This document shows, one piece after another, positions 43,327 through 52,751 of a stretch of 64,000 bases of DNA (its first letter is position 1; each line of letters opens with the position of its first letter). Position numbers and translations under genes: made by a program. This DNA comes from a virus (Duplodnaviria > Heunggongvirae > Uroviricota > Caudoviricetes). The notes beneath the pieces were generated by a model, which saw only the letters and a program-made list of their open reading frames with translations, made no database searches and was not told where the DNA came from. The stretch lies in the IMG/VR virus record IMGVR_UViG_3300033075_001920. One strand, written 5' to 3'.

Positions 43327-43401
43327 TGGTTGCGGGGGACGGACTCGAACCGCCGACCTGGGGGTTATGAGCCACCCGAGCTACCGCTGCTCCACCCCGC
43401 G
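43327..43401 (-). tRNA. trnfM: tRNA-fMet (CAT), initiator
   Basis: cloverleaf, C1:A72 mismatch, encoded CCA. Confidence 0.92.
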
Positions 43402-43564
43402 ATAAAATGGAATGTATGGTCAGTCAGCAAAAGCCCACGGACCAAAATGGGGCAAAGTTAAAATCAGCACGAAAACAACTTTCTCATCTTTTACATTCCA
43501 GTGGACAAATATAGAAGAAAAGAAATAATCCTAAAAATATTTTTTCAGATAATAAAAAATCCAT

Positions 43565-43730
43565 TATTTTTGTTTTGTCTATGCGAAAGAGCCCTGCGCC
43601 AAAAGAACCCTCAGCTAAAAGTGAGATACTGTCTCCAAACAGCCTCATCTAGGATAGTATCCTGGATCTGATTGGTCAATTGCAGACCAATTTCACAAAA
43701 GAACCGGTTATGCATGACCGGTTTTTTTTT
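43565..43730 (+). ncRNA. putative small RNA with own promoter and terminator
   Basis: TATTTTTG at 43565; serial hairpins; terminator aaccggtt..gaccggtt plus T-run. Confidence 0.55.
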
Positions 43731-45143: not shown

Positions 45144-45224
45144 TCACGACACAATAAACCCTGATTCGCATGTAAAACATGGGAATTGCTCGGGGGTGTG
45201 TCGCTGAATAAGATTTAAAATCAC
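45144..45224 (-). CDS. leader peptide 1: MILNLIQRHTPEQFPCFTCESGFIVS (GTG start)
   Basis: codons 7-20 use only Q,R,H,T,P,E,F,C, the amino acids of the downstream tRNAs. Confidence 0.85.
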   Translation of the reverse strand: MILNLIQRHTPEQFPCFTCESGFIVS

Positions 45225-45563: not shown

Positions 45564-45571
45564 TATATTTG
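45564..45571 (+). promoter_or_regulatory. -7 promoter element of Leu/Ser/Tyr tRNA operon
   Basis: TATATTTG. Confidence 0.75.
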
Positions 45572-45579
45572 CACTCCCG

Positions 45580-45642
45580 ATGAGACAACAATTATCACTC
45601 AGTTATTCGTACCTATCAGCCTTTGCTGATCAGCTCGGATAA
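45580..45642 (+). CDS. leader peptide 2: MRQQLSLSYSYLSAFADQLG
   Basis: codons 5-13 use only L,S,Y, the amino acids of the downstream tRNAs. Confidence 0.88.
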   Translation: MRQQLSLSYSYLSAFADQLG

Positions 45643-45667
45643 CCTATGTGATTAAAATCTTGCATAG

Positions 45668-45695
45668 AAACCCCGGCTGAAAAGTCGGGGTTTTT
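45668..45695 (+). terminator. attenuator terminator of Leu/Ser/Tyr operon
   Basis: AAACCCCGGCT-GAAA-AGTCGGGGTTTTT. Confidence 0.85.
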
Positions 45696-45705
45696 GTGTT
45701 TATAT

Positions 45706-45779
45706 ACCCCTTTAGCCCAACGGAAGGAGGCGCGTGCCTTAGGAGCATGACAGTATCGGTTCGAATCCGATAGGGGGTA
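45706..45779 (+). tRNA. trnL: tRNA-Leu (TAG), short variable loop
   Basis: loop CTTAGGA, A73, 5-nt variable region. Confidence 0.8.
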
Positions 45780-45815
45780 CAAAAAAAAGTACACTGTACA
45801 AAAAGTGTACAAAAT

Positions 45816-45889
45816 GCACCCGTAGTCCAACGGCAGGAGACGAAGAGTTTAAGCCTCTGACAGTGTGGGTTCGAATCCCTCCGGGTGTA
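45816..45889 (+). tRNA. trnL: tRNA-Leu (TAA), short variable loop
   Basis: loop TTTAAGC, A73, 5-nt variable region. Confidence 0.78.
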
Positions 45890-45894
45890 CAAAT

Positions 45895-45985
45895 GGAAAG
45901 TGAAGCAGCTGCATTGGAGCGGCGATCAGTCTTGAAAACTGAGTCAGGTTTTGCCTGTGGGGATCGGGTCCTCCTCTTTCCGCCA
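45895..45985 (+). tRNA. trnS: tRNA-Ser (TGA), atypical T-loop
   Basis: loop CTTGAAA, long variable arm, G73, CCA. Confidence 0.82.
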
Positions 45986-45990
45986 GTTAT

Positions 45991-46079
45991 GGAAGATAGT
46001 CAGATATGGCTCGCTGAGTCTGTTTGCTAAACAGATCTGCTTTAAAGGAGCAGTGAGGGTTCGAATCCCTTGTCTTCCG
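45991..46079 (+). tRNA. trnS: tRNA-Ser (GCT)
   Basis: loop TTGCTAA, long variable arm. Confidence 0.88.
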
Positions 46080-46087
46080 CTAAATAT

Positions 46088-46173
46088 GGGTGTGCTGTCG
46101 CGATTGGTGGAGCGGCGCCGGTCTGTAAAATCGGTACTTTGATACGCTGTGGGTTCGAATCCTACCACACCCT
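46088..46173 (+). tRNA. trnY: tRNA-Tyr (GTA)
   Basis: loop CTGTAAA, long variable arm. Confidence 0.88.
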
Positions 46174-46214
46174 CTAAATAAACATAAATATACAAAAGTG
46201 TGTATATTTACATT

Positions 46215-46820
46215 TTAATGTATGTTTGGCAGTATATTCAACTCCGAGTATTCCTTTCCGAAATTTTCAATCGCAGCTTGATTATATGCCATTGCAGCAT
46301 CTTCCTCGTTTATAAAATAACCCAGATGCTTTTTAACGTAATCTAATTTTATATAAGCAGCCCATTTTTTTGCAAAATTACTCCAGCTAACTCCCTTGTA
46401 AACACTGGATGGCTCATCGCCGTTTGCTGTTTTGGGTTTCTTCTCCTTGTAATGTGCTTTACGATGATCAATGATTTCAATATTGTCTCGTCTTAAATTG
46501 AGCGGGTTTTTATCCTTATAATGGATAATAGATTTACCTTCAATATCCATCATTAATTTTGCTACCGGCGCAACAACCCTCTTACCTTGTTTTGAAATCC
46601 ACAATGCCATTACTATACCCCTCTTTTTATCAAAGAAGATTGCCTGCTGTCTTAAAATTTCATAATCTAAATCATCAAATTCAATGATTTTACCGCAGGT
46701 TGTTTTGACCCATCTGAATTGATTCGCAAATATCCGCATTGCTTTTATTGCATCATTTTTTGAGATATTTTCGGTTTTCTTTCCAAAAATGTCGTGCAAT
46801 ATTTCAATTTCGGTTTTCAT
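46215..46820 (-). CDS. HNH-AP2 homing-endonuclease-like protein
   Basis: IHYKDKNPLNLRRDNI (degenerate HNH) plus SSVYKGVSW...HLGYF..EEDAAMAYNQAA AP2 domain. Confidence 0.85.
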   Translation of the reverse strand: MKTEIEILHDIFGKKTENISKNDAIKAMRIFANQFRWVKTTCGKIIEFDDLDYEILRQQAIFFDKKRGIVMALWISKQGKRVVAPVAKLMMDIEGKSIIHYKDKNPLNLRRDNIEIIDHRKAHYKEKKPKTANGDEPSSVYKGVSWSNFAKKWAAYIKLDYVKKHLGYFINEEDAAMAYNQAAIENFGKEYSELNILPNIH

Positions 46821-47294: not shown

Positions 47295-47427
47295 TACATT
47301 TGCCTTGTTCTTTGAACCCAGCGGGAGTGTACCCGCGATGCGCCTGTGGAGTCTTCCTTGCGAAGCCGATGAATCAGGAAATAATGCCTTACAACACCGC
47401 CCAGTTATTACTAAAGGCTTTTACAAC
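47295..47427 (+). ncRNA. TnpB/Cas12f-like guide-RNA scaffold copy A
   Basis: promoter TACATTTG; 109 nt nearly identical to reverse complement of 45387-45495. Confidence 0.8.
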
Positions 47428-47530
47428 TAGTACGAAATTGTCGATTTCTTTAGTTTGAAAGGTATTTACAACTCGTATGAGTATCATAAATTTGAAAGGC
47501 AATACAACATTCCCTCCAGCTCACATCTTT
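47411..47530 (+). CRISPR. minimal CRISPR-like array with short repeats
   Basis: CTAAAGGCTTTTACAAC / GTTTGAAAGGTATTTACAAC (47453-72) / ATTTGAAAGGCAATACAAC (47490-508) separated by unique 25- and 17-nt spacers. Confidence 0.65.
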
Positions 47531-50514: not shown

Positions 50515-50601
50515 ATGAGCAAAAACGTCAATATAGCCGGCATGAATAAAGATTGGAGAGGAATTCTTCACTCAGGGGCTCTATTGCGCACAATGATATA
50601 A
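50515..50601 (+). CDS. leader peptide 3: MSKNVNIAGMNKDWRGILHSGALLRTMI
   Basis: codons 3-17 use only K,N,V,I,A,G,M,D,W,R, the amino acids of the downstream tRNAs. Confidence 0.85.
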   Translation: MSKNVNIAGMNKDWRGILHSGALLRTMI

Positions 50602-50625
50602 AACCGTTCGGAAACGCGCCAAGAA

Positions 50626-50655
50626 AAGCCCCAGAGAAATCTGGGGTTTTTTTTT
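50626..50655 (+). terminator. attenuator terminator of third tRNA operon
   Basis: AAGCCCCAGA-GAAA-TCTGGGGTTTTTTTTT. Confidence 0.88.
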
Positions 50656-50692: not shown

Positions 50693-50765
50693 GGGCCCGA
50701 AGCCAACGGCAGGCCGGCTGCTTTGCAAGCAGATCGTTTGGGTTCAACTCCCACGGTGTCCACCA
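50693..50765 (+). tRNA. trnA: tRNA-Ala (TGC)
   Basis: loop TTTGCAA, G3:U70, CCA. Confidence 0.85.
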
Positions 50766-50857
50766 GTTGGCTCATTTTTGAGCCAGTTAGTGTCTCAAAA
50801 ATCATTGATTATGAGACGCAATGTAGTTTTGTGGCTCATTTTTGAGCCACAAAACAG

Positions 50858-50968
50858 GTAGTGGGTCGATCACCGGATATATCCATTCTTATGGTAAATG
50901 CTAGGTTCGAATCCTGCCGGCGGGTTGCCCTCTAAAATTGGAAGGGGAACCCGCCGTAGACTCACTAC
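50858..50968 (+). ncRNA. circularly permuted tRNA-like element Z (opened at D-loop)
   Basis: 10-bp GTAGTGGGTC/GACTCACTAC stem; TTCGAAT T-loop; CGGCGGG..CCCGCCG-TA acceptor. Confidence 0.6.
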
Positions 50969-50976
50969 TTTTTTAC

Positions 50977-52162: not shown

Positions 52163-52424
52163 GGCAAAAAAAAACCTTTTAAGCCAAATAAGGATAGGCT
52201 GAACTTCTATTATTTTCCAATTCTTCCTTAGACCTGACTTTAAAATTGAAAAGAGGCGCATTAGGTTTGATAAACAATATGAATGCCATATCACCGGCAA
52301 CTACATAAGCTGCAGTGGAATTATGTGTTACAATTTCTTTCATATTATTTTCAAAGGTCTTTAATTTTTAGCTTTTTTTCAAAAATAAAAAAGCGGAAGC
52401 ACTTTAAAATACTTCCGCCCCTTA

Positions 52425-52751
52425 GGTGGAGCTGGGGGGCTTCGAACCCCCGTCCGGTCGCAGGAACCCTTACATATTTATAGTAATAGAGAGATTAAGA
52501 CCTCACAAACCATGATGGGTATTTTGAATTTCTTTCAAAATTCTGTGCAAATAGTCGCTTGCATCAATTTTGCGGATTTGTGACACCGCGGTTTCACCTT
52601 AGGCGGCAAGCTTAACGCTGGCGGGCTGAGGACGGAAAGCAATCACTTTGCAGTTTTTGTCTTTTGTTTTATGAATGTTGTTTTAGCAGTGCAAACAAAC
52701 TGCTACTAAATGTAAGAACTCATATCTACCCCGTCAATTCCAGTCAACCCC
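52425..52751 (-). ncRNA. ssrA: tmRNA
   Basis: 5' GGGGTTGACTGGAATTGAC; 3' GGTTCGAAG..CAGCTCCACC with G3:U70; tag ...KNCKVIAFRPQPASVKLAA*; promoter TATCTTTG at 52756-63. Confidence 0.92.

Follow-up and report, generated by a model that had tools for sequence, protein, structure and literature searches.

A putative leader-peptide attenuator precedes a phage tRNA operon

We describe a locus that very probably represents a ribosome-mediated (leader-peptide) transcription attenuator controlling a phage tRNA operon, although no expression or in vivo response data are available. With this arrangement, the phage probably makes its Leu-Leu-Ser-Ser-Tyr tRNAs only when ribosomes are short of them. The locus is situated in a stretch of 64,000 nucleotides from a Caudoviricetes phage (IMG/VR record IMGVR_UViG_3300033075_001920), the whole of which was analysed and is referred to as the window. 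The window belongs to a contig of 132 kb, has a G+C content of 38%, harbours 24 tRNA genes and a tmRNA gene at 43.3-52.8 kb, and encodes phage-type proteins such as an HNH endonuclease, NAMPT, DNA methyltransferases and glycosyltransferases. A Bacteroidota host was inferred from the TAnnTTTG-type promoter boxes and has not been shown.

An earlier note on this DNA had interpreted the region as an attenuator for the Leu-Leu-Ser-Ser-Tyr operon. Our analysis supports this interpretation in that every sequence-level feature is present, in the right order and with the right spacing; the in vivo response is inferred. On the plus strand, the unit starts with a putative promoter −7 box, TATATTTG (45564..45571), of the Bacteroidota TAnnTTTG type, located 8 nt upstream of the leader ATG. 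The −33 element is weak, no Shine-Dalgarno sequence is found at the leader start, and the sequence further upstream is a divergent promoter region and not a gene end. In the absence of transcription start site data, the position of the box implies a 5′ UTR of a few nucleotides at most (~0-8 nt), and thus a nearly leaderless mRNA. When the whole window was searched, the TAnnTTTG motif was not enriched (96 found vs 80 expected). Among ten leaders that were checked, nine harboured a TAnnTTTG-like box 4-8 nt upstream of the start codon, and in the tenth this distance was 27 nt. Since the motif is not enriched window-wide, the promoter call rests on position and recurrence, and the transcription start is inferred.

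The leader ORF (45580..45642, +) consists of 20 codons and a TAA stop codon (ATG at 45580, TAA at 45640-45642) and has the translation MRQQLSLSYSYLSAFADQLG. Translation of this ORF confirmed codons 5-13 as previously listed: TTA TCA CTC AGT TAT TCG TAC CTA TCA, a control run at 45592-45618 (+) that encodes LSLSYSYLS. The ORF is followed by an inner 8-bp hairpin (45644..45667, +) and by an intrinsic terminator (45671..45702, +) composed of a stem, a GAAA loop and a T tract, with a predicted core energy of −14.3 kcal/mol. The terminator stem is GC-rich and comprises 8 bp, with CCCCGGCT (45671-78) as 5′ arm and AGTCGGGG (45683-90) as 3′ arm, after which the T tract TTTTTGTGTTTA is found.

Directly after the terminator, which is located 4-15 nt upstream of the first tRNA, the operon begins with tRNA-Leu(UAG) (45706-45780, +), which is followed on the same strand by tRNA-Leu(UAA) (45816-45890), tRNA-Ser(UGA) (~45895-45985), tRNA-Ser(GCU) (45991-46080) and tRNA-Tyr(GUA) (46088-46174). 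The proposed Leu-Leu-Ser-Ser-Tyr operon (45706..46174, +) is therefore confirmed, with the restriction that tRNA-Ser(UGA) was detected by ARAGORN at relaxed thresholds only. At default settings it was missed by both ARAGORN and Rfam, and the Rfam class-II (tRNA-Sec) model gave a weak match (27.5 bits, E 0.048).

Several tRNA genes in and around this operon are unusual. tRNA-Ser(UGA) (45895-45985) and tRNA-Ala(UGC) (50693-50765, +) both have an encoded CCA and were both found at relaxed thresholds only; several tRNA arrays of other phages contain homologues of the odd tRNA-Ser(UGA). For tRNA-Leu of bacteria, a long variable arm is the norm. Both tRNA-Leu genes of the window, by contrast, measure only 75 nt and are class-I-like, having a variable region of 5 nt and a D stem of 3 bp. 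The Leu tRNAs of one other phage described below (L050) are likewise 75 nt long, and those of the remaining lineages are 81-88 nt long. Between the two Leu tRNA genes, a terminator-like hairpin with a T8 tract is found on the opposite strand (45810-45789, −), which could be a stop for antisense transcription coming from the HNH gene.

The codons of the leader match the tRNAs of the operon

When all ORFs of 12-50 codons in the window (n = 1249) were compared, the run of nine Leu/Ser/Tyr codons was the single longest, the next best being six. Based on the codon frequencies of the window, the probability that a codon specifies Leu, Ser or Tyr is 0.237, and that of nine in a row is 2.3 × 10^−6. 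When the leader was scored with the tRNA sets of the two other tRNA operons of the window, the run length dropped from nine to three and two.

At the level of single codons, the match with the downstream anticodons was claimed to be exact for TTA, CTA, TCA, AGT and TAC. This holds for TTA, CTA, TCA and TAC, which are the exact complements of four of the five downstream anticodons. AGT, on the other hand, is decoded by anticodon GCU through G:U wobble. The CTC codon lies outside the standard wobble of UAG and would need four-way reading by U34 (U:C). CTY and TCY are the codons that the anticodons of the operon cannot read under standard wobble; only 1 of the 39 Leu/Ser control codons in the first five Leu/Ser/Tyr leaders belongs to this class, compared to 35% in the genes of the phage (P ~10^−6, or 10^−3 if three independent lineages are counted). 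CTA is rare in the genes of the window (7% of Leu codons), yet it is frequent in the runs. However, CTC or TCC is present in two leaders that were found later (L044 and L049), which weakens the codon-level argument. Moreover, each leader of the window contains NNC codons of four-fold boxes for which only a U34 tRNA is available (CTC, ACC, CCC, GTC, GCC and GGC). Such control codons fit with a minimal tRNA set that reads four-fold boxes via U34, and the strict isoacceptor argument is weakened accordingly.

Predicted alternative folds of the leader depend on the position of the ribosome

The leader transcript is predicted to fold in three mutually exclusive ways, which involve a 1:2, a 2:3 or a 3:4 helix. 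Region 2, the putative antiterminator strand TCAGCTCGG (45630..45638, +), covers codons 17-20 and ends 1 nt before the stop codon. In the 1:2 hairpin (45602..45643, +), GUUAUUCG...AUCAGC is paired with GCUGAU...CGGAUAAC, and the 5′ half is located within control codons 8-14. With its flanks, this hairpin has a folding energy of −17.4 kcal/mol (z −3.9; none of 200 shuffles was equally good). According to the folding it would act as an anti-antiterminator and possibly as a pause hairpin, but pausing has not been shown.

Region 3, CCGGCTGA (45673-80, +), overlaps the 5′ arm of the terminator and consists of six arm bases and two bases of the GAAA loop. The 2:3 helix is formed by UCAGC-U-CGG (45630-38) and CCG-GCUGA (45673-80), in which 5 bp and 3 bp are separated by a bulged U, and it encloses the inner 8-bp hairpin. 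The pairing of 45630-38, with one bulge, to the 5′ arm and loop of the terminator had been predicted beforehand and was recovered with an energy of −10.6 kcal/mol, as the MFE structure of a transcript that ends before the 3′ arm of the terminator. The complete 2:3 structure reached −17.9 kcal/mol (z −4.55), which was again matched by none of 200 shuffles. Taken alone, the antiterminator complementarity is only modestly unusual (39 of 2000 shuffles, p ~0.02).

The influence of a translating ribosome was modelled by masking positions −15 to +13 around the A-site codon and folding a transcript that ends before the 3′ arm of the terminator. As long as codons 4-13 occupied the A site, region 2 sequestered six of the eight bases of the terminator 5′ arm (P 0.75). 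When the A site was placed on codons 15-17, region 2 was masked and sequestering of the terminator arm fell to P 0.26-0.38. For a ribosome at the stop codon, this crude model gave P ~0.5 for a partial sequestering of the 5′ arm by AUCAGC of region 1. If the full-length leader was folded at equilibrium with the same mask, the terminator always won, so that no discrimination was obtained and the truncated (co-transcriptional) model alone is informative. Because equilibrium always favours the terminator, read-through must be kinetic, as in trp, which is assumed here and not shown.

Both other tRNA operons of the window have a matching leader

The same leader/terminator design was found in front of both other tRNA operons of the window. 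The minus-strand sister unit (45224-45091, −) has the box TATAATTG, which is separated by 4 nt from a GTG start codon at 45224, and a terminator at 45117-45091. Its leader, VILNLI-QRHTPEQFPCFTCE-SGFIVS, contains the 14-codon run QRHTPEQFPCFTCE, and its operon encodes tRNAs for Glu, Pro, Cys, Phe, Thr, Gln, His and Arg(ACG). In the plus-strand sister unit (unit C; 50515-50655, +), TATAATTG is located 8 nt upstream of the ATG at 50515 and the terminator is found at ~50628-50655. The leader of unit C, MS-KNVNIAGMNKDWRGI-LHSGALLRTMI, contains the 15-codon run KNVNIAGMNKDWRGI, and the operon encodes tRNAs for Ala(UGC), Lys, Arg(UCU), Trp, Ile, Met, Gly, Val, Met, Asn and Asp. A Trp codon in the run is accompanied by a tRNA-Trp gene in the operon.

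Each of the two sister runs is the unique maximum for its own tRNA set, and the 3 × 3 matrix of leaders by operons is diagonal. The Arg codon is CGA in the minus-strand leader, which precedes the operon with anticodon ACG, and AGA in the leader of unit C, which precedes the operon with anticodon UCU. Taken together, the three runs of the window use all 20 amino acids. In both sister units, a strand complementary to the 5′ arm of the terminator follows directly after the run, and ribosome masking gave the same on/off pattern as in the Leu/Ser/Tyr leader.

The tRNA region of the window contains some further elements. A non-coding element of ~200 nt is present in two copies (45514-45300, − and 47303-47500, +), each directly behind a TAnnTTTG box. 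The copies are 82% identical overall and nearly identical over the first ~115 nt; the former is flanked by the promoters of attenuators A and B. This element looks like a duplicated small-RNA gene, and one copy had been called a guide-RNA locus in the earlier note. Between tRNA-Ala and tRNA-Lys, a region of ~210 nt (50766-50976, +) has no tRNA call but contains a GGCTCATTTTTGAGCC hairpin twice, one further hairpin and GGTTCGAATCC, which resembles the T arm of a tRNA. Apart from the operons, a tRNA with initiator features (C1:A72 mismatch) is encoded within 43327-43513 (−). This possible fourth control unit has its own TATATTTG box (43513-43506), a 7-codon ORF (MRKLFSC) and, at 43451-43434, a T tract with a weak hairpin. 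A promoter-ORF-terminator match at 43581 (+) was dropped, as no tRNA is located behind it on that strand. The tmRNA of the window (52424-52751, −) is of the standard type and that of another phage, G001 (L027), is permuted; both adjoin tRNA arrays.

Leaders of unrelated phages follow the content of their tRNA operons

An exact-match search for the leader in IMG/VR gave no match, and no close relatives were found in IMG/VR via the neighbouring proteins of 376 aa and 971 aa. A blastn search of the region against the INPHARED phages gave only generic tRNA matches. In the absence of a close relative, support has to come from analogous leaders, and no alignment-based covariation is available for the leader of the window. 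Other tRNA arrays of uncultured phages were therefore retrieved using the neighbouring HNH endonuclease and the odd tRNA-Ser(UGA) as baits. The phages obtained in this way have little or nothing else in common with the window; G001, for instance, shares the HNH gene as its sole gene.

Seven further leaders of Leu/Ser/Tyr operons were found. Those of L001 (= L028, L029; MKNT-SLHSYLSLY-PKQSVQENLYCS), L041/L035 (MKN-LSLHSSLYLS-PKGSGDFLL) and L038 (MKN-LSLHSLSYLSLS-KGSGYILL) precede operons that start with tRNA-His, and among the Leu/Ser/Tyr leaders these are the only three with a His codon in the run. The other four are those of L031 (= L032, L033; MKRN-YSYLLLSLSYL-KSNYG), L044/L047 (MKRTN-LYLLSSLSYSL-NYNRDTII), L049 (MKNINT-YLLSYLSS-DPRAEIGM) and L050 (MKTQK-SYSLSLSYSLS-KQEAFY). 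The eight distinct leaders, from the phage of the window and at least five other phage lineages, have their composition in common but not their sequence, and their Leu/Ser/Tyr runs comprise 8-12 codons. By inspection, the first tRNA is immediately preceded by a terminator in all seven relatives, and a complement of the terminator 5′ arm follows closely on the run within the ORF. For L001, L041, L038 and L031, 1-9 of 2000 shuffles equalled the best pairing with the 5′ arm, and in the mask model the 5′ arm was sequestered only with a ribosome on the run. Comparison of L041 with L038 revealed a compensatory exchange (C:G to G:C) in the terminator stem.

Other operons behave in the same way. The operon of G001 is reduced to Pro-Phe-Gln, and the run in its leader is QQFFPQQPQF. 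In L031 and L049, tRNA-Trp is grouped with Pro, Cys, Phe, Thr, Gln and His, and the corresponding runs are QHTTWQCQFPFT and WHTTCTQCPF. That the content of the leaders follows that of the operons is, as far as can be judged from sequence comparison, the strongest argument for a function of these leaders.

Further codon-matched leaders were observed in L049 (4490-4660 and 6515-6660) and L031 (11953-12110 and 13203-13365, −). The C-type leaders of L031 and L049 match their operons less cleanly, as they include a few amino acids (Glu, Gly, Asn and Arg) for which ARAGORN found no tRNAs in the operons; undetected tRNAs may be located in the gaps. When the terminator of attenuator A was used as a search pattern, ordinary gene-end terminators were returned (L024 and L026), showing that the hairpin by itself has no diagnostic value. 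In G001, a candidate leader found upstream of the large tRNA cluster was rejected, as it is located inside the permuted tmRNA gene.

The HNH endonuclease of the window (46215-46820, −) belongs to a family that is also found in L001, L028, L031, L035, L038 and L041, with copies that are 59-75% identical. These copies are located inside or adjoining the tRNA arrays of otherwise unrelated phages, and the family has the appearance of a homing endonuclease that moves together with tRNA regions. SegB of phage T4 is a homing endonuclease that has been reported to travel with a tRNA region (PMC2330249).

Evaluation of alternative explanations

The observations above have to be weighed against the possibility that the Leu/Ser/Tyr-rich ORF arose accidentally in an AT-rich spacer, in which codons for these amino acids are common (p = 0.24 per codon). 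However, none of the other short ORFs (1249 in total) has a run of nine (p ~2 × 10^−6), the leaders of all three operons in the window fit with a diagonal cross-matrix, and at least five further phage lineages show such a match as well, so that chance is effectively refuted. We also regard it as unlikely that the hairpin is merely a leaky, constitutive terminator or insulator that does not switch but keeps tRNA transcription at a fixed low level or ends transcripts arriving from upstream, with the ORF being a separate micro-peptide gene or serving as a translational 'warm-up'. Terminators precede many phage genes, the same type of hairpin ends ordinary genes in L024 and L026, and at equilibrium the terminator always wins, all of which would be compatible with such an element. 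It does not account for a peptide whose composition is conserved rather than its sequence and shifts with the tRNA content of the operon, nor for an antiterminator strand that invariably follows closely on the run within the ORF; in addition, the sequence upstream is a divergent promoter region rather than the end of a gene.

A further possibility is that the run acts as RNA without being translated, by pairing with the anticodons of tRNAs in a T-box-like or sponge-like manner and thereby stabilising the antiterminator or the terminator. The exact complements to four of the five anticodons in the run could be read in this way, and as with T-boxes the regulated genes belong to the translation apparatus. 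However, neither the T-box family (RF00230) nor any other riboswitch family was matched, even at E<=1, and neither a specifier loop nor an acceptor-binding bulge is present. The match to the tRNA set is confined to a single frame, and in all leaders this frame has an ATG or GTG near the promoter box and a stop codon after region 2. Furthermore, as many as 10 different tRNAs would have to be bound by one and the same element. Untranslated action of the run is thus very unlikely, and ribosome-mediated attenuation is the reading that we follow below.

Proposed mechanism of the attenuator

For the ribosome-mediated attenuator we propose the following sequence of events, in which the promoter, the transcription start, leader translation, read-through, the kinetics of folding and the physiological trigger are all inferred. 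Host RNA polymerase would initiate a few nucleotides upstream of the ATG, and the nearly leaderless transcript would be loaded by a ribosome, which then meets nine test codons that call on all five downstream tRNA species. If any of the cognate aminoacyl-tRNAs is scarce, the ribosome would stall within 45592-45618, where it melts the 1:2 hairpin and leaves region 2 (45630-38) free. As soon as region 3 (45673-80) has been transcribed, it could be paired by region 2; with region 3 occupied, no terminator would form and the polymerase would enter the Leu-Leu-Ser-Ser-Tyr genes. In the case of fast decoding, a ribosome at the end of the ORF would cover region 2, allowing the terminator to form and transcription to stop at 45691-45702. 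The predicted net effect is a negative feedback that supplies tRNAs on demand. The demand may come from a mismatch in codon usage with the host, from decay of host tRNAs during infection or from cleavage by anticodon nucleases.

Much more tentatively, and with greater doubt than confidence, we consider that the three leaders of the window constitute a codon census of all 20 amino acids, by which the phage would monitor the decoding capacity of the host one block at a time and switch on the replacement tRNAs of precisely the block that is failing. Such a census would be a response to tRNA decay or to anticodon-nuclease defence, going beyond the tuning of codon usage. The same tentative reading includes a resolution of isoacceptors, namely CGA vs AGA for Arg and CTA, TTA, TCA and AGT for Leu/Ser.

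If the attenuator is real, decoding capacity would be under direct closed-loop control, and a very old regulatory mechanism would have found a new use. It would also offer a handle on the near-complete tRNA sets of large phages, with respect to codon mismatch, host shut-off and escape from tRNA-cleaving defence, and might provide synthetic biology with compact, modular and codon-specific sensors of tRNA availability. As the design recurs in several phage lineages that are unrelated, the principle may well be widespread and have been overlooked.

Comparison with known attenuation systems

Control of tRNA genes is thought to act at promoters, through growth rate and the stringent response, and not by attenuation. 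To our knowledge, it is generally not known how phage tRNA genes are regulated. In our literature search, in which the full text of most subscription journals was out of reach, we found no report of leader-peptide attenuation of tRNA genes. A classical attenuator design with tRNA genes as its target is a departure from the scope of this family for which we found no published description. Because the downstream genes are tRNAs, we classify the phage locus as a variant and not as an ordinary attenuator.

Leader-peptide attenuators are classically represented by trp, his, leu and pheA, and multivalent leaders are those of ilvGMEDA, with Leu/Val/Ile codons, and thr, with Thr/Ile codons. The phage locus resembles the ilv/thr type in having a promoter, a short ORF with a run of regulatory codons, 1:2, 2:3 and 3:4 helices and an intrinsic terminator, and in sensing several amino acids. 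Searches with Rfam models gave full-length alignments to Thr_leader (20.2 bits, cut-off 55) and His_leader (17.9 bits, cut-off 49), which are below threshold and reflect architectural likeness, not homology. A further sub-threshold match, to STnc40 (32.8 bits, cut-off 55), was likewise discarded as not homologous, being driven by the terminator and a hairpin. In contrast to the attenuators of amino-acid operons, the phage locus is followed by five tRNA genes and not by genes for biosynthesis, transport or aminoacyl-tRNA synthetases. Its codons enumerate the tRNAs of the operon (five isoacceptors for three amino acids here, up to 10 amino acids in a sister leader), and its output would replenish the sensed molecule itself. 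It further differs from the enterobacterial leaders in being phage-encoded and in its putative nearly leaderless mRNA and Bacteroidota-type promoter.

The pheST operon of E. coli, with its pheM leader, is similar in that a component of the translation apparatus is subject to attenuation and the cognate charged tRNA is sensed. That system, however, is cellular and controls a synthetase gene in response to one amino acid, and no tRNA gene is regulated. T-box riboswitches (RF00230) likewise convert tRNA status, via codon-anticodon pairing, into a switch between terminator and antiterminator. In T-boxes, one uncharged tRNA is bound directly and without a ribosome, and genes for aminoacyl-tRNA synthetases and amino-acid metabolism are controlled, whereas the phage element has an ORF in the place of the specifier loop.
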